Below, one piece after another: positions 55,726-64,000 of a stretch of 64,000 bases of DNA. Source of the DNA: Escherichia coli. GTDB taxonomy: Bacteria > Pseudomonadota > Gammaproteobacteria > Enterobacterales > Enterobacteriaceae. The translations under genes and the position numbers were made by a program. The stretch lies in assembly GCF_001677475.2 (NCBI RefSeq), contig NZ_CP015229.1; one strand, 5' to 3'. The notes under the pieces were generated by a model. It was not told the origin of the DNA and ran no database searches. It was given only the letters and a program-made list of their open reading frames with translations. Positions within the stretch are counted from its first letter, which is position 1, and each line of letters starts with the position of its first letter.

Positions 55726-56385
55726 TTAATCGCGGCTGGCGAAGCCCAGAATGCTCAGCAGGCTGACGAAGATGTTGTACAGCGAAACATACAGGCTAAC
55801 CGTGGCACGAATATAGTTCGTTTCACCGCCATGAATGATGTTGCTGGTTTCAAACAAAATAGCGCCAGAGGAGATCAGAATGAAGACCGCGCTGATCGCC
55901 AGATGCAGAGCAGGCAGTTGCAGGAAGATATTCGCAACCATACCAATCAGCACCACCACAATACCCGCCATCAGCATACCGCCGAGGAACGACATATCTT
56001 TGCGGGTGGTCAGCACATATGCAGAGCAGCAGAAGAACACTAACGCCGTTCCGCCCAGTGCCATCGCGATTACGTCACCCATTCCGGCAGACAGATAGGT
56101 ATTCAGAATTGGTCCGAGGATATAACCCAGAAAACCGGTAAAGGCGAATGCGGAGATAATCCCGGTCGGCTTATTCGCCGTTTTATAGGTCAGGAACATC
56201 AAACCATACATACCCACCAGCGTCAGAATCAGACCCGGAGATGGCAGCATCAGCACCGTACTGGCAGTTGCGGTAATCGCCGAAAAGGCCAGCGTCAGGC
56301 TCAGCAGAAAATAGGTATTACGCAGCACCTTATGGGTGCTAAGCAGTGATGTACGGTCATGTGAAGAACTAACAATACGATCCAT
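55726..56385 (-). CDS. yccA: BAX-inhibitor-1 family membrane protein YccA (FtsH modulator)
   Basis: 219 aa, seven hydrophobic segments. Confidence 0.85.
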
Positions 56386-56792: not shown

Positions 56793-57812
56793 CTACTTAC
56801 TGACCACAAGCGGCAAATCCAGTGTTGGCGTGATTTTGGTTTTACGATCGTAAATCAACACCTGATTTTCTGTTTTGTGTCCACTGAAAATTTGTTTGTC
56901 GCGACTGCTGCCTTCGTAATCTGAAATCCCTTTGGCTTTTATGTCATGGAAGTTGCACCCAAACGGAACGCCGGCTTTTTGCTCGGCTGCACGTTTAGCC
57001 TGATTCCACCAGTTGTTCAGCGTCTTGGCTATTACCTTCCCGCCTTTGGTTGTGTTGATCACATACTCGCATGTGCCGGAAGATACATTTCGGGCTAACT
57101 GGATCGCCGTACGTAATCGCGGAGACCATTCCTTGATTTGTTTAGTGCCAGTCTTGTTTTGCTCAATGTAAATCCCTTTATCCATAATATCCTGCCATTT
57201 CAGCTCGAGTACATCACCGAGCCTTGCCGCACAAAGATAGGATATCTCCATTGCAATACGTAACTGTGGAATTGCTTCCGCATATATTGCTGCATACTGT
57301 TCATCGGTGATGTAAACAGTACGGGCTTTAAGTGTGAATTTTCTGACACCTTTGCATGGATTATTTTTCACATACCCACGCTCATATCCCCATCCGTATA
57401 CACGGCTCAGACTTGCCAGTTCATGGTTTGCCTGGGTCTTGCTCTCAAGTCCTCGCTTATCCATGAAAATTCTTACCTGTTCAATTTTTACATTATCAGC
57501 AAGCACTTTTCCGAATACTGCCAACAATGCCCTTTGATGTTGCCGATAATCTTTTTGGGTTCGGGGGGCCAGTTCTGTAAATGCAGGGGAGTCCATAAAC
57601 ATGTGCCATAATTTAGCTACTGTCATTATGTTGTGGAGTTTTGCTTTTTCCAGCTCATAATTTTGCCAGACTTTAGCTACGCTGGTTTCCCGCACTCTTC
57701 CGAGCCCTATAGTTCTTGTGCTTCCTTCGGGTTTCCATACGTAACTGTAACCGTTCGATCTAACACGCGGTGGTAGTGCATTATCTTTTTTGTTTTTTCT
57801 TGGTCTTCCCAT
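56793..57812 (-). CDS. int: Tyrosine-type site-specific integrase (lambda Int family)
   Basis: 339 aa; C-terminal catalytic region GHKTENQVLIYDRK resembles lambda Int LLGHKSDTMASQY; 3' end faces the att site. Confidence 0.9.
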   Translation of the reverse strand: MGRPRKNKKDNALPPRVRSNGYSYVWKPEGSTRTIGLGRVRETSVAKVWQNYELEKAKLHNIMTVAKLWHMFMDSPAFTELAPRTQKDYRQHQRALLAVFGKVLADNVKIEQVRIFMDKRGLESKTQANHELASLSRVYGWGYERGYVKNNPCKGVRKFTLKARTVYITDEQYAAIYAEAIPQLRIAMEISYLCAARLGDVLELKWQDIMDKGIYIEQNKTGTKQIKEWSPRLRTAIQLARNVSSGTCEYVINTTKGGKVIAKTLNNWWNQAKRAAEQKAGVPFGCNFHDIKAKGISDYEGSSRDKQIFSGHKTENQVLIYDRKTKITPTLDLPLVVSK

Positions 57813-58032
57813 TGTTCAGCGCCTCAAAATCGGGTTCAGCGGAAACCAGCTCAGGTGCTTTTGGCATCGTTGTCAGTCCGTGTGGAATATCCCTGCGAAG
57901 AACTATTGGTTCGTTTTTAGGACCGATTACAAATGGGATGCCGTGCAGCCTTAACTGGTGTTGCTGTTTTGTGTATCGCTCGTATTTCGTGATCTCTTGA
58001 ATCTCTGCTGGCGATAGAGTTAATTCGTACAT
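57781..58032 (-). CDS. xis: Excisionase-like protein (lambda Xis-like)
   Basis: 83 aa, N-terminus MYELTL and basic C-terminal tail KTKKKQKR resemble lambda Xis; overlaps int start by 32 nt. Confidence 0.6.
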   Translation of the reverse strand: MYELTLSPAEIQEITKYERYTKQQHQLRLHGIPFVIGPKNEPIVLRRDIPHGLTTMPKAPELVSAEPDFEALNNGKTKKKQKR

Positions 58033-58098: not shown

Positions 58099-60549
58099 TT
58101 AAAAATCAACCGGATTCGGGATCAGTTTTTGCCAGATTGCTGAAACGTATTTTGCCTGGTAACGAGCGTCATCAAGTGCATTATGGCGCTCACCTTCGAA
58201 TGGGATAGCTGTTCTGGCATCGAAGTCTATGGCTTTCCCCAGCTCAACGATTGTGCGTACATCGCGATCGTTGCAGTAGCGCCAAGGGCAGGGGATACCC
58301 TGTCGTTCGTATGAACGGCGTAAAATCACGTTGTCGAAGTTGGCCCCATTACCCCAGACCTGAACAAAAAATTCACCGGAGTTTTCGTCGATAAATTCCC
58401 GCAATTGCAGCAGTGCATCATCTAACGGGATTTCATCGGTCAGAATGGCAGATTGCGCCTCGCGTGATTGCTTAAGCCACCATTTTATGGTGTCACGATT
58501 AATGACTCCGCCAGCAGTTTCCAGATCGATGGTCTTACTAAATTCCGGCCCCATATCTCCGGTTTGCGGATCGAAAAATATTGCACCTATTGAGATAATC
58601 GGGGCATCGGGATTTTTTCCCATGGTTTCAAGGTCGATCATAAGATGGTCACATGACCTGCTTGTGGATGTGATATTGTGATAACCGTTCACCTTAATTA
58701 AGGGATCTGTTGCTTCGCCAGTTTCATTATCGCTGGCGTGATGCTGATTGCCTCCAGTGTTCTCCTTGTGTGGATGTTCAGCGCCTTCCATTTCCTCCGG
58801 ATCATTCTCCTGAGCTTCAACCTGATTCTCTTCATCGAATGTTTCCTGGTATGTTGCGTTTCCCATGACCGCGCCACAGTCAGGACAGTTGCCGCCGCTG
58901 CTCTGACCGCAGACGGTGCAGACTTTTTCCGGTTCCTGTTGCACTACTGGTTCGGATTGTTTCGTTTCTGGTTCGTTTTGTTGCGCATTTGGGCTGTTTT
59001 GTTCCGCTTTCTGGTCGTTCTGTGCCGTTTCTTGCTGGTTCTGGTTCACAGAATCGCGGGTTTCAATCCCCTTCACCCATTTCGGATCATTCGGGTCGCT
59101 AATCCCTGCAACAAATTCACCACGTGATGCAGCGAGCAACTGACTGGCGTCAGGCAGGCTGATATTGGCTGCCTGCATAATTTTGTTTACTTCGTCAGCG
59201 GTAACTTTTACCTGATTAACCGGATCTATCTGTGCCTGAGTATCCAGCGATTGCGTGTCCTGGCGAAGTTCAGTTGTATCCGGCTCCATTGCTTCAGTCG
59301 TTGCCTGTTCATCTGCCATTGCGTCAGACGGTTGTGATTTTTCATCATTATTTTTTTCTTCTTCTGTTTCGCGTTTAGCAGCCAGTTCGCGGTTAACTTC
59401 TTCCTGGATATCTTTTTCCGGTGTATGTCGTGCAGCAGCGAGAGTTTCTTCGGTAGGGTTCTCGTGATCAGTCTCCGTTAAGTGGGCGTTGATATACTCC
59501 TGAAGGCGTCCCGGGTAGAGATAAAGTTCAGGGTGAGCACTTCGGATAAGTGCAAAAATAGCGGCACGGGAATAATCCAGAATACCAGGGGTTGCGCGAA
59601 GTGCTGCGGACCATTCTTTGAACGGACTTTCTTTCTTCCGGACGACTTCTTTTGCGCGACGATAAACGCTGCCCGGAATTTCATAAATATTAAAATCCAT
59701 CGGAAGTGTGGCCGCTGCAATCTCCACATCCAGCGTATCGAAGGTGTGTACTAAATTCGGATTGCGATCGGTTTTGTTCCCGCCGCCAGCATTAGCACCG
59801 GAAGCCGTGCGGATGATGCGTGAAACACGATTCCCCTTCATCCACTCTTTTGTAAGCAGACCGCGATCGGTGTAGTCAGCGCCCAGGTATGCTTCGAAAA
59901 AAGCAGTCATCAGTCCCAGGTCTGAATTGCCAGGATTAGGGAAAACTTTGTCAGTGTCACGAACCAGTTTGTGGAGATCGCGAATTTCCAGCGGTTCGAG
60001 TTGCGCTGCTTTATTTGAGATGGCCAGCGCGGTAACGGCGGGAAGTTTTTCATCCTGTGCGTTATGTAATGCGCGCAGTTCGCCCCGCGAAACGTGAGTG
60101 ATCGGTTTTTCGCTGCCGTGCTGAGCAAGCCAGCGAATGGGAAGTATCTGGCCAGAAACCGGGAGTAGCATATTCTCCTCAATATCAGTCATGTCTTCGC
60201 CGTTGACGTTGGTATTGTCAGTGCTGGCTGGTTTATCCTGAACAGAGGGCGCGATAAATACCATTGTGATACCATCTTCCCCGCCTTTTTCGTATCGGTT
60301 GCAGAATTCGGTATCAAACACACCTTCCGGAGGCAGGTCATTCACAACGGGTAAATGGACGCGGACGGGTTTTTTAAAGTCGTCTTCATCATAATCGTTG
60401 TCATCCATTGCGGTAATACAACGGGAGATGGCAACAGATAATTTTTTTGCTGTGGTCCAGTAAAAACCACCTTTAATTCCCAGGCGTTTTCTGACTTTGT
60501 CATTTTTTGCTTCGCAATATAGCGCAAATTCTTCTTTTTCAGTGCTCAT
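58099..60549 (-). CDS. Large prophage protein: unknown N-terminal domain, acidic/Gln-rich low-complexity linker, CxxC-x9-CxxC zinc ribbon, C-terminal DnaQ-like (DEDDh) 3'-5' exonuclease domain
   Basis: 816 aa; exonuclease motifs IDLETMG (Exo I), WGNGANFDNVIL (Exo II), HNALDDARY (Exo III) in last ~185 aa (about 58102-58656); SD GAGG 7 nt upstream of ATG. Confidence 0.75.
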   Translation of the reverse strand: MSTEKEEFALYCEAKNDKVRKRLGIKGGFYWTTAKKLSVAISRCITAMDDNDYDEDDFKKPVRVHLPVVNDLPPEGVFDTEFCNRYEKGGEDGITMVFIAPSVQDKPASTDNTNVNGEDMTDIEENMLLPVSGQILPIRWLAQHGSEKPITHVSRGELRALHNAQDEKLPAVTALAISNKAAQLEPLEIRDLHKLVRDTDKVFPNPGNSDLGLMTAFFEAYLGADYTDRGLLTKEWMKGNRVSRIIRTASGANAGGGNKTDRNPNLVHTFDTLDVEIAAATLPMDFNIYEIPGSVYRRAKEVVRKKESPFKEWSAALRATPGILDYSRAAIFALIRSAHPELYLYPGRLQEYINAHLTETDHENPTEETLAAARHTPEKDIQEEVNRELAAKRETEEEKNNDEKSQPSDAMADEQATTEAMEPDTTELRQDTQSLDTQAQIDPVNQVKVTADEVNKIMQAANISLPDASQLLAASRGEFVAGISDPNDPKWVKGIETRDSVNQNQQETAQNDQKAEQNSPNAQQNEPETKQSEPVVQQEPEKVCTVCGQSSGGNCPDCGAVMGNATYQETFDEENQVEAQENDPEEMEGAEHPHKENTGGNQHHASDNETGEATDPLIKVNGYHNITSTSRSCDHLMIDLETMGKNPDAPIISIGAIFFDPQTGDMGPEFSKTIDLETAGGVINRDTIKWWLKQSREAQSAILTDEIPLDDALLQLREFIDENSGEFFVQVWGNGANFDNVILRRSYERQGIPCPWRYCNDRDVRTIVELGKAIDFDARTAIPFEGERHNALDDARYQAKYVSAIWQKLIPNPVDF

Positions 60550-60639
60550 TGATAAACCTCATTACAGATTTAAGGGTGAACAAATCCCTGCCATTGCTGG
60601 CATATAAAAATGAAACCGGATATTTATTACTGTGCTGTT

Positions 60640-60831
60640 TTAAAGTCCTGCCGGGACTTCGTTATTATCCATGCGAATAACTTTATCGACCGGATAACAG
60701 TTACCGGGAATTTTTTGTTCTGCTGCGGCAGCCATGCATTCTTTCATTGAACCGTATAAGCCAGTCACCAGCTCAAGAGATTCGCCGGAAACAAGATAAA
60801 CTGTCAGAACGAGTGCAAATGTTGTATTCAT
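60640..60831 (-). CDS. Hypothetical small protein (63 aa) with hydrophobic N-terminal segment
   Basis: ATG preceded by AAGGA SD; start overlaps upstream stop (ATGA); sequence MNTTFALVLTVYLVSG suggests signal/TM segment. Confidence 0.55.
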   Translation of the reverse strand: MNTTFALVLTVYLVSGESLELVTGLYGSMKECMAAAAEQKIPGNCYPVDKVIRMDNNEVPAGL

Positions 60832-61016
60832 TGTTTATATCCTTTTTGCCGCAGGTCCAGACGAGCCAGCATTGAAGGAATGCATACTTCATTTAACAGG
60901 TCCTGCTCGAGTGTTCTCTGCTTAATGGCGTCTTCAATAAATGTTTTGTCTCCGGTGATAACGCCAATTTCGAAACGAAGTTCAGACGTACTGGCATTGC
61001 ATGATAACTTTTCCAT
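60828..61016 (-). CDS. Hypothetical small protein (62 aa)
   Basis: ATG preceded by GAGGA SD at 7-nt spacing; translationally coupled to downstream 63-aa gene. Confidence 0.55.
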   Translation of the reverse strand: MEKLSCNASTSELRFEIGVITGDKTFIEDAIKQRTLEQDLLNEVCIPSMLARLDLRQKGYKQ

Positions 61017-61033
61017 TATCGCGTCCTCAACAA

Positions 61034-61186
61034 TGAATTTTGTGATGCGGTGCCTGGTGCCTCCAGGTGACGTTAACCAGTTAACAATTAACGCCGGAGT
61101 ATTTCACGTTACGCCAGTAAAGGACCGCTTTACTGTTTTAACTGTTCCGCGTGCGCTTAGCCGCATTCACCGCATCACAAAATTCA
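61034..61186. repeat. 19-bp perfect inverted repeat (TGAATTTTGTGATGCGGTG / CACCGCATCACAAAATTCA) flanking a 115-bp hairpin-rich spacer
   Basis: Arms at 61034-61052 and 61168-61186; spacer holds nested hairpins cctgg-tgcct-ccagg, cgttaa...ttaacg and cagtaaag-gaccg-ctttactg; no ORF over 26 aa on the minus strand across 61017-61573. Confidence 0.7.
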
Positions 61187-61573
61187 CTTTAAAAAGGGCG
61201 GACATCAGCCAGCAATGAAAACTGATGCCGCCAAAGGTACCAATCAACATGGAGTGTTGCGGCGGGGTTGTCACTCAGGCGTATGGTCAACCTGACAACC
61301 CGGTGTCACCAGTGGGGGTAAGGAAAACCCCGCCATACTTACCGCCGCGCCATTTCGCGGAGTGCCACAACCGGAAGCGCACGGTCGACGAAAATTTAAC
61401 GACAGGCTATCTATGAACCATAAACCTCGCCGTGCGCTTTCGCGTTATGCCCTGACTTTTCAGGGAAATATCCTTTCAGTAAACTGTCAGTGCCGGATGT
61501 TCACCCGTGTCCGGCGCACGCACTCCACCTCACCCGTGGAGAACCCCTTAATTACCAACCCTCAGGAGAGTGA

Positions 61574-61807
61574 ATGTTAAAATCAACTCTTATTGCTAAA
61601 TGCCTTTATCAAAATCGCATGGTAAGCAGCATTTCAATAGGCGAGTCTGCAGTTAAAAGTATTTTCGAAGAGTTCTTTCCCGGGCATGATTTTAATAAAT
61701 GGAATACCAAATTACCGCCAGCAGTTTCAACGCGTATTCTGAAAGCAACTGAAAGAGCAAGTACAATTCGCGTTAACTATTTCATTAAAGATTTGTGGGA
61801 TCTTTGA
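61574..61807 (+). CDS. Hypothetical AT-rich small protein (77 aa), opposite orientation to neighbours
   Basis: ATG preceded by AGGAGA SD; low GC relative to surroundings; 3' end overlaps convergent 135-aa gene by 23 bp. Confidence 0.45.
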   Translation: MLKSTLIAKCLYQNRMVSSISIGESAVKSIFEEFFPGHDFNKWNTKLPPAVSTRILKATERASTIRVNYFIKDLWDL

Positions 61808-62192
61808 TATCCACAGAGCCTAAAGTATGTGCATATGGATGTGCTATTGTGCGCCCTCGCAGATTTGCATCATTTTCTAAATTCACTGAACGAAACAGGG
61901 CATCAACAAGGCTCTGTACAATGCAAAGGCAATCGAAGACTGTCGCTGTTTCTGTTTTGATTGATGAAAGAACATGGCCATTCACGCAAACAGAAATTAC
62001 CCGTTCATTAACATCGCTTTCCTGCTTTTGATTATCAGAACTATATAGCCCAGAAAAAGCATTGCGCACATTATGAACCATATTATCGATGGTTTCTTTT
62101 TCTACGGTACTCAGGTCAAGAGTCGCCAGTTGAGAACGAACTATATTCGCTGCCATTTCCTGGAATGGTACTGGTAAATCTTTAAATTCCAT
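61785..62192 (-). CDS. Hypothetical protein (135 aa; alternative start at 62204 gives 139 aa)
   Basis: ATG at 62192 with GAGG 6 nt upstream; upstream gene stop TGA lies within the ribosome-binding region, implying coupling; no recognisable motif. Confidence 0.6.
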   Translation of the reverse strand: MEFKDLPVPFQEMAANIVRSQLATLDLSTVEKETIDNMVHNVRNAFSGLYSSDNQKQESDVNERVISVCVNGHVLSSIKTETATVFDCLCIVQSLVDALFRSVNLENDANLRGRTIAHPYAHTLGSVDIKDPTNL

Positions 62193-62207
62193 CGTCAACC
62201 TCATCAG

Positions 62208-62423
62208 TCAGTGGTTTTCAATCTCTCGTGAAACGTTTAATGCCGCGCTTTTTGCCAGAGTGGTAATATCCAGCTCCGCTGACGCCAGTTCTTTAGAGAG
62301 GTGCTCTTTGTTGTTAGCAGCCTGTTTCAGGTCATTAATGGCGCGTATCTTCCCGAACATCCATTCGTAAATTTCATCATCGGTATAGCCTGGTGCGATG
62401 ATGGTGGGTTCTGGTTTCTGCAT
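62208..62423 (-). CDS. Hypothetical protein (71 aa)
   Basis: ATG at 62423 preceded by AAGGAG at 5-nt spacing (track ORF starts at an upstream GTG, 62462); first gene of a two-gene coupled unit. Confidence 0.6.
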   Translation of the reverse strand: MQKPEPTIIAPGYTDDEIYEWMFGKIRAINDLKQAANNKEHLSKELASAELDITTLAKSAALNVSREIENH

Positions 62424-62515
62424 GTCAGCTCCTTGTGGTTCGCATTGCCTGCTTTTAACCACGTCAGGCGAGGTGGTATCCTCTGAGGGGTCTGTTACTC
62501 GAGAGGAAATTGGTT

Positions 62516-62716
62516 ATGAATACAATCAAGTTTTCTTGCCCAGAATGTGGTGGCGAAGTCTTTGACACATCCTTTAAGCCGCAGGGCTCTGACAGTTTCG
62601 CGGGAGCCATCTGCAAAAATTGTGGTCACCTTGTAACTGAAGATGAGTCCTCGCAGTTCGATGACGAAATCGTTGATAATATCTTCGGCGCACTCACCAG
62701 AGATTTCCTGAAGTAA
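62516..62716 (+). CDS. Small zinc-ribbon protein (66 aa)
   Basis: CPEC-x19-CKNC motif; GAGAGGA SD 8 nt upstream of ATG; divergent from the 71-aa gene with 92-bp shared upstream region; fewer rare codons than the overlapping antisense ORF. Confidence 0.5.
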   Translation: MNTIKFSCPECGGEVFDTSFKPQGSDSFAGAICKNCGHLVTEDESSQFDDEIVDNIFGALTRDFLK

Positions 62717-63030
62717 AAGCGCATGCCGTTTAGTTACCGCTCTGATCATTCTTACTTGTCCGGTAATGGCGCTGACATCAGTATAAAGCGCCATTGCTGC
62801 TTCTTTGCCGATCCCAGGATGCCTTCCATTCTGATGTTTGACTTCGCCCACTGAGAAATCCTCTGTTTCCCCTTAACGCCGGGGTAGCGGAACAAAAACC
62901 TGCTGCATAGTTAAAGTTGAACCCTGCCGTCATGTTCTTACGCCTCGGGCTGGCTACTTAACCCCTGACCACTGCCTGGTAACTCGAAGTATTGCCCTGC
63001 GTTTTGTGGGGCGGGGTGGGTTAGTAAAAA

Positions 63031-63052
63031 TAGTTTATACAAAAATAAACTA
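63031..63052. repeat. 22-bp palindrome TAGTTTATACAAAAATAAACTA (candidate operator or structural site)
   Basis: Perfect 8-bp arms around a 6-bp AT core, in the 400-bp non-coding gap between the zinc-ribbon gene and the ParE-like gene. Confidence 0.5.
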
Positions 63053-63116
63053 AACAGTCAATATGCAACTTAACTCTTTGGCGAGGATAACCCCTGTTGA
63101 GAGGGGCTTCGGGGGA

Positions 63117-63404
63117 TTAAGGTGTTACAGGGAACTGTCGGCGGGCGTGAACTACGCTAACAATTTCAATGCCTGAAATTGTCACGCGGTATAGAATTAT
63201 GTAATTGGGGTGAGCAACAATTTCACGCAAACCCGGAACTCTGTCGCTTGGCGGGTATAAATACGGATGCTCAGATAATGGCAGGACGCAAGTCCTTAAG
63301 CGTTTCCACAAACGTTCTGCCGCATCTATATCAAAACGAGCAATATAGCTAGTTATATCATCCAAGTCGGCATCTGCGCTTTCGAGCCATAAAACCGGTA
63401 ACAT
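63117..63404 (-). CDS. parE: ParE/RelE-family toxin
   Basis: 95 aa; family pattern (LPVLWLESADADLDDITSYIA ... PGLREIVAHPNYIILYRVTISGIEIVSVVHARR); start abuts antitoxin stop (TAAATG). Confidence 0.8.
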   Translation of the reverse strand: MLPVLWLESADADLDDITSYIARFDIDAAERLWKRLRTCVLPLSEHPYLYPPSDRVPGLREIVAHPNYIILYRVTISGIEIVSVVHARRQFPVTP

Positions 63405-63596
63405 TTACTGCTTGCTCCGTTCCTTGCGCATGTTAGCAAAGCGTTCAGCCATTCTGCGTTCAACTTCGTCATGTGGGATGGCTGGACGTGGATCAGCAAG
63501 GCTTGCGGCCACTTTTGCACGCAGCCATTCGTTATAACTATTTTCTTGCTCGATGGTTTCAAATTCAGAAACCATTGGTGAAAGGGCTGTGTTCAT
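63405..63596 (-). CDS. Small antitoxin (63 aa), PaaA-like partner of the ParE-like toxin
   Basis: ATG at 63596 with GAGG SD; immediately upstream of toxin; size and position as in recalled three-component paaR-paaA-parE modules. Confidence 0.7.
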   Translation of the reverse strand: MNTALSPMVSEFETIEQENSYNEWLRAKVAASLADPRPAIPHDEVERRMAERFANMRKERSKQ

Positions 63597-63631
63597 GGCG
63601 AACCTCGTTTTGTAAGTGCTGGTAATTCTGC

Positions 63632-64000
63632 CTAGGTAACTTTTTGTTGTGCTGCTAGCCACCTTGCAACTATACGATCCATTGTCTCTTTTTTTTCCTT
63701 CATATCTTTAAGTATTTGCTGTTGATCTTCCTCTGGAAATGCCTCAAATGTTTGAAGTAGCTCCTTTTGCTTAGGAGATATTTTTAATATATCCTGTGTT
63801 TTGTCTTCTTTTTCTTCATTTAATGGTAAGAAAAACCAATGTTGGGGAAAACCCGTTACTTCAGATAGTTTATCTAGATTAGCTGCTGTAGGGCTTGATA
63901 TACCACAAACCCACCTTTGGACGGATTGTTGAGCAATACCAATTCTGCGCGCAAGCTCTGCTTGACTCCAGCCTTTTTCTAATAGAAGCATCTTAATTCT
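63632..64000 (-). CDS. HTH XRE-family transcriptional regulator (PaaR-like), 5' end beyond window
   Basis: Helix-turn-helix signature GWSQAELARRIGIAQQSVQRW; frame open to window edge; 35 bp upstream of the antitoxin gene. Confidence 0.75.
   Translation of the reverse strand, partial: RIKMLLLEKGWSQAELARRIGIAQQSVQRWVCGISSPTAANLDKLSEVTGFPQHWFFLPLNEEKEDKTQDILKISPKQKELLQTFEAFPEEDQQQILKDMKEKKETMDRIVARWLAAQQKVT

Follow-up and report, generated by a model that had tools for sequence, protein, structure and literature searches.

In the 64,000-nucleotide stretch of Escherichia coli DNA that we analyzed, referred to here as the window, two small genes overlap on the minus strand and are followed by a large exonuclease gene on the same strand. 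The first-pass annotation of this DNA had predicted 2 ORFs of 62 and 63 amino acids, a strong Shine-Dalgarno (SD) sequence in front of each of them, and a distance of 90 bp to the gene for an 816-aa exonuclease. All these elements were found, with both ORFs at exactly the positions it had given. The features of the gene pair and its immediate surroundings are:

61028-61024, minus strand: SD of dicB, GAGGA, 7 nt before the ATG, read from the sequence
61016..60828, minus strand: dicB, encoding the 62-aa cell-division inhibitor DicB, a diverged allele
60844-60840, minus strand: SD of ydfD, AAGGA, 8 nt before the ATG, within the last codons of dicB
60831-60828, minus strand: ATGA stop/start overlap of dicB and ydfD, four shared bases
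60831..60640, minus strand: ydfD-like gene, encoding a 63-aa DUF1482 protein homologous to the K-12 lysis protein YdfD
60550..60639, minus strand: spacer of 90 bp separating ydfD from the exonuclease gene, 89% identity with K-12
60549..58099, minus strand: exonuclease gene, 816 aa, with a RecE/YdfE-type N-terminal region and a C-terminal DEDDh 3'-5' exonuclease domain

The statement in the first-pass annotation that nothing in the sequences identifies the 2 small products did not hold, because both match curated families and both are annotated in RefSeq. The homology search that it had proposed placed the 62-aa protein in Pfam PF05358 (E 4.8e-37) and, over its full length, in NCBIfam NF049927 (117.4 bits with a cut-off of 100, aligned 1-62/62), and BLASTP aligned it to K-12 DicB with 53% identity and no gaps. 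In a locus that is 99.6% identical in DNA, the homolog carries the RefSeq name 'dicB'. The 63-aa protein matched Pfam PF07358 (DUF1482; E 1.3e-20, residues 5-61) and phrog_1092 (E 5e-35, aligned 1-63/63), and its alignment with K-12 YdfD, also without gaps, showed 65% identity. NCBI already lists an identical 63-aa protein (P0001), seen on 133 contigs, under the name 'DUF1482 family protein'; the sources use for DUF1482 also the name YebW, which is that of a paralog. By sequence, the 2 ORFs are members of the DicB and the YdfD/DUF1482 families, respectively. A PDB sequence search with both small proteins found no solved relatives of either. In K-12, DicB recruits MinC to midcell by binding it, so preventing Z-ring formation, and through the same interaction with MinC it inhibits ManYZ, so that resistance to phages injecting via ManYZ, lambda among them, rises approximately 100-fold (PMC6832061). 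K-12 YdfD lyses cells when expressed alone, and co-expression of DicB or SulA prevents this lysis (PMC8835842). From these K-12 experiments we infer, by homology, the functions of the allele in the window.

ORFs of approximately 60 aa are frequent by chance, as 73 ORFs with 30 aa or more overlap the 6 kb around the pair. That the 2 ORFs are real genes is indicated not by their presence as such but by their homology, by dN/dS values below 1 in comparison with diverged alleles, and by conserved synteny. The anatomy of the junction is also conserved. The stretch TTGAGGACGCGATAATG at the SD of dicB has identical letters in K-12, and AAAAGGAT directly precedes the ydfD start in all 7 junctions displayed. 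The stop/start overlap described in the first-pass annotation is formed by bases common to both ORFs and is kept in 6 of these 7 junctions, and in phage PPompW according to the annotated coordinates; the exception is strain 52F4 (L006), where the dicB stop precedes the ydfD ATG by 2 nt. This layout fits translational coupling. Placing the ydfD SD inside dicB and overlapping the genes by 4 nt would tie YdfD synthesis to DicB synthesis, so that the lytic protein would normally be made together with its suppressor. dicB and ydfD have been reported as overlapping genes in one operon (PMC8835842).

Of 5426 complete E. coli genomes, 4741 were matched in a megablast search with positions 60550-61300; the median copy number was 2 per genome, and the best match was 99.6% identical. 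In matches that cover both genes, the annotations are 'dicB' together with 'DUF1482 family protein' or 'ydfD'. The order dicB, ydfD, exonuclease, xis, int was present in all 7 annotated loci inspected (K-12 Qin, strains MFDS1019527, SX23, NRZ14408, and 52F4, and phages Tritos and PPompW) and in 8 of the 8 contigs carrying the identical YdfD protein, giving 15 of 15 related loci with the recurring order. In one of these contigs (L015) the exonuclease gene is absent from the gene list and the interval is unchanged. The first-pass annotation had named homologs that always occur apart from the exonuclease gene as evidence against its reading; in the inspected loci they always lay next to it (L015 with the unlisted gene and the same interval). 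Because the integrases, repressors, and promoter-proximal genes differ among these prophages, the dicB-ydfD block is kept across phage mosaics.

Comparison of positions 60550-61320 with K-12 Qin (L002) showed nucleotide identities of 72% for the dicB coding sequence and 78% for that of ydfD, with 89% for the spacer and 96-99% for the arms of the leader upstream of dicB. The differences in dicB fall on the 3 codon positions as 16/20/16, with no third-position excess. Against diverged alleles, dN/dS was 0.32-0.69 for dicB, the value of 0.69 being that obtained with K-12, and 0.35-0.41 for ydfD, indicating that both genes behave as constrained coding sequences, dicB weakly so. The dicB allele of the window is a minority allele (of 4867 matching records, approximately 630 reach 90% identity) and is also present in an O157:H7 genome. 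The divergence of the coding parts between conserved RNA elements would fit cassette-like exchange, or relaxed or diversifying selection on DicB. A further step would be to regard dicB-ydfD as an exchangeable cassette under diversifying selection, with alleles of different exclusion or lysis specificities, which we consider highly improbable; if true, the alleles might target phages with other inner-membrane entry routes, or MinC/ManYZ variants, and a co-translated pair of suppressor and lysin could also serve lysogens as a division-gated suicide device.

Because DicB and YdfD share only 53% and 65% identity with the K-12 proteins on which experiments were done, and the dicB differences are even over the codon positions, function could have shifted. 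The pair could consist of genuine family members that are drifting and have lost or changed the K-12 activities of MinC binding and lysis, as suggested by the 53% identity to K-12 DicB, by the equal frequency of substitutions at the 3 codon positions with dN/dS of 0.69 against K-12, and by the minority status of the allele (approximately 630 of 4867 records). However, both ORFs are intact, with exact family lengths and no indels, and dN/dS was below 1 in every comparison with appreciable divergence. The 26 DicB positions that are invariant across five diverged alleles and the 16 YdfD positions that are invariant across 27 family members are all retained, the identical YdfD protein occurs on 133 contigs, and SD and overlap are conserved. 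Loss or change of the K-12 activities is thus distinctly unlikely, and we continue to read the pair as a dicB-ydfD allele with K-12-like functions.

The region upstream of dicB contains 2 RNA elements:

61245..61196, minus strand: DicF sRNA variant (hairpin and U-tract; Rfam RF00039), 180 nt upstream of dicB
61186..61033, minus strand: structured leader of approximately 150 nt between dicF and dicB, fold z = -5.6

The DicF copy aligned to the full Rfam RF00039 model (1-52) with 44.1 bits (E 3e-7), short of the gathering score of 48. The terminator hairpin is kept and its position is syntenic with that of the DicF of phage Tritos, the only one of the 7 loci in which DicF is explicitly annotated; K-12 aligns through the dicF region. 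The 5' end of DicF reads GAUUGGUACC here and UUUCUGGUGACG in K-12, and the loop differs too. In K-12, DicF pairs through its 5' end with xylR and through its 3' end with ftsZ and pykA. Because the 5' end, which pairs with xylR in K-12, differs, the target range of this copy may differ from that of K-12 DicF. A conserved stem-loop, GGGUUGUCA...UGACAACCC, was observed at 61265-61301 (minus strand), 20-56 nt upstream of DicF, within a stretch (61246-61310) that is 86% identical to K-12; it does not coincide with the RNase III site mapped for the 190-nt species.

The leader is closed by a helix of approximately 21 bp that stops 4 nt short of the dicB SD, and in contrast to its arms, its interior is 55% identical to K-12. 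In a consensus fold over 7 loci, the changes in the helix were mostly wobble-compatible, and compensatory changes were found at 1 pair of 63, the helix being too invariant for covariation. The helix is therefore conserved, but covariation does not prove its structure. The leader also gave a sub-threshold match to Rfam STnc100 (38 bits, gathering score 47). An extended fold shows weak pairing between the DicF U-tract and the dicB SD, and the leader structure may control dicB translation. Cleavage by RNase III makes the 3' end of the 72-nt DicF (PMC5069750); judging from this published cut, the site probably lies in the 5' arm of the leader helix.

Outward from this block, the window contains the following genes:

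63991..63632, minus strand: DicA-like HTH repressor/regulator, near the window end
63596..63405 (probable coordinates), minus strand: PaaA2/RelB-type antitoxin of 63 aa, toxin-antitoxin module
63404..63117, minus strand: ParE/RelE-type toxin, toxin-antitoxin module
61785..62851, minus strand: three promoter-proximal ORFs (118, 84, and 139 aa) in the place of K-12 ydfA/B/C
58032..57781: excisionase-like gene of 83 aa, overlapping the integrase gene; DUF4224 in matching loci
57812..56793: tyrosine integrase of 339 aa, prophage end
56385..55726: host gene yccA, beyond the integrase at the prophage end

The 118-, 84-, and 139-aa ORFs matched PHROGs 21318, 1744, and 1363, all of unknown function, and had no match in an NCBIfam search. 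ARAGORN found no tRNA gene as attachment site between 55000 and 58000. We also observed that the toxin-antitoxin module separates the repressor-like HTH gene from the early-left operon (63117-63991, minus strand); together with the HTH gene it forms a trio that resembles the three-component PaaR-PaaA-ParE systems of O157:H7 prophages. Because the toxin-antitoxin genes and the DicA-like repressor lie upstream, and the xis-like gene, the integrase, and yccA downstream, the region corresponds to a lambdoid early-left arm. Our main reading, to which we assign a probability of about 0.9, is that the locus is the 'dicBF' early-left operon of a lambdoid (Qin-like) E. coli prophage integrated next to yccA, and that its dicB-ydfD pair has K-12-like functions. 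The operon structure, its processing by RNase III/E, and its occurrence in many prophages have been described (PMC10448788, PMC5069750).

In such an operon, transcription would proceed leftward from a repressor-controlled promoter through the three ORFs, DicF, the leader, dicB, ydfD, the exonuclease gene, xis, and int. This gene order is the one found by synteny, and we infer a single transcript. As long as the repressor is active, the early genes would be mostly silent. Upon derepression, the 62-aa DicB would bind MinC and take it to the septum, blocking the Z-ring and division. Via the same interaction with MinC, it would inhibit the ManYZ inner-membrane channel and thereby block the entry of lambda-type phage DNA, a kind of superinfection exclusion. 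Translation from the overlapping ATGA start would yield the 63-aa YdfD, and this protein would cause lysis that needs ongoing division, with the reported binding of IspG of the MEP pathway; the co-produced DicB would suppress this lysis.

How YdfD would act was considered separately. The hydrophobic N-terminal segment that the first-pass annotation had seen in the 63-aa product spans approximately residues 4-16, where the Kyte-Doolittle mean over 11 residues peaks at 2.35. This segment of approximately 13 residues is followed by V-S-G and then E, and in no family member is it preceded by a basic residue. The EQKIPGNCYP motif of the conserved core is present, the region between the segment and this core (residues 17-30) is the most variable one, and cysteines C32 and C45, both in the soluble part, are invariant. 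In one study, YdfD was found to bind IspG and to block the MEP isoprenoid pathway, as supported by pull-down, FRET in cells, and metabolic evidence, and the contact with IspG was mapped to YdfD residues 1-28 (PMC8835842). This mechanism is somewhat at odds with the hydrophobic N-terminus and the invariant cysteine pair. A short hydrophobic N-terminus without a preceding basic residue, together with two invariant cysteines, would sit more naturally with action in the membrane or periplasm than with cytoplasmic IspG. YdfD could accordingly be anchored in the membrane or exported, and its target could be the envelope at the division site, attacked from within the membrane or periplasm, instead of cytoplasmic IspG. 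C32 and C45 could then form a periplasmic disulfide, and the strict dependence of YdfD lysis on ongoing cell division, as it is given in PMC8835842 with reference to Masuda 2016, would be in line with such a site of action. Moreover, residues 1-28, to which the IspG contact was mapped (PMC8835842), coincide with the hydrophobic part of the protein, which in our view can be sticky in pull-downs. Nevertheless, the pull-down, the FRET in cells, and the metabolic data favour IspG (PMC8835842), and we regard action from the envelope side as unlikely, although deserving some weight.

In the exonuclease, Pfam searches detected Exonuc_VIII at residues 57-187 (E 3e-26) and Rv2179c-like at residues 635-806 (E 4.7e-67), and the NCBIfam exoVIII model aligned to residues 1-619 only, with a score below the cut-off. 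The N-terminal part corresponds to the non-catalytic region of RecE/exonuclease VIII. No gene for a RecT/Bet-type annealase adjoins the exonuclease gene, and there is no separate ORF between it and the excisionase-like gene. Folding of the 90-nt spacer that precedes the gene revealed no structure beyond chance (z = -0.19), and its sole terminator-like feature is a weak 5-bp hairpin (60602..60589). A consensus scan for promoters and terminators over 60300-64000 gave counts equal to the shuffled expectation and was uninformative on internal promoters or a terminator after ydfD. The K-12 operon is defined as ydfABC-dicF-dicB-ydfDE, ydfE being a truncated exonuclease, and Northern blots in K-12 detected a ydfABC-dicFB-ydfD transcript and none reaching ydfE (PMC10448788). 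Because these Northern blots lack a transcript into ydfE, the evidence for co-transcription of the pair with the exonuclease gene is synteny. The earlier suggestion of a three-gene operon is thus borne out as far as the common strand and the constant adjacency of the genes are concerned, but not by transcripts in K-12.

The first-pass annotation had further compared a small membrane protein next to a nuclease with abortive-infection and superinfection-exclusion modules. In such a module, the small hydrophobic protein would sense or gate and the nuclease would execute. The genes are indeed on the same strand and always adjacent, the 63-aa protein has a hydrophobic N-terminus, and the neighbouring DicB has real phage-exclusion activity (PMC6832061). 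However, in a scan of PADLOC-DB 2.0, DicB, YdfD, and the exonuclease had no match at E <= 0.01; among six neighbours also scanned, the repressor-like protein gave generic HTH matches only. The exonuclease, composed of a RecE-type N-terminal region and a DEDDh domain, is located between the small early genes and xis-int of a lambdoid early-left operon. Besides, the exclusion phenotype of K-12 maps to dicB, with a minimal effect of ydfD deletion (PMC6832061), and it was seen where only a truncated exonuclease pseudogene is present. The proposal was dropped with the empty PADLOC scan of the three genes of interest, and we find such a gated nuclease scarcely credible here. What stands of the proposed superinfection exclusion is its link to DicB (PMC6832061), whereas the combination of membrane protein and nuclease as an abortive-infection module is unsupported. 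The phage-exclusion activity known for the module is that of DicB only. We therefore retain the reading of the locus as a prophage early-left operon.

The useful outcome of this analysis is a correct label for the locus, namely the dicF-dicB-ydfD-exonuclease early-left arm of a lambdoid prophage, DicB being a protein known to inhibit division and to confer resistance to ManYZ-dependent phages. Other prophage division inhibitors are Kil of lambda and KilR of Rac. Like DicB, the lambda Kil-type inhibitors are small proteins from a repressor-controlled early-left operon that block FtsZ-ring formation on induction, and in phage Evi a protein annotated 'Kil' lies under a partial match to the window region. 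Unlike them, DicB acts via MinC and not directly on FtsZ/ZipA (PMC6832061), and the likeness is a functional one for which we claim no sequence relationship. With respect to the Qin cryptic prophage of E. coli K-12, the pair, the overlap, the operon, and the functions of both K-12 homologs have already been published, and a near-identical locus is annotated in RefSeq; the window copy is a further copy, with a minority allele, of this published and widely annotated module. The dicB gene resembles that of Qin in its 62 aa, its full-length family match, its position after dicF and the conserved leader, and the 4 nt shared with the gene that follows, and differs from it in that the proteins share 53% identity. 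Likewise, ydfD shares with its Qin counterpart the 63 aa, the hydrophobic N-terminus, the EQKIPGNCYP motif, the two invariant cysteines, and a start that overlaps the dicB stop, and differs in 65% protein identity with residues 17-30 as the most variable part. Finally, Qin retains ydfE as an IS2-truncated remnant (a pseudogene) of the 816-aa exonuclease gene, whereas the apparently intact early-left arm in the window has xis, int, and the complete, full-length version of this gene.
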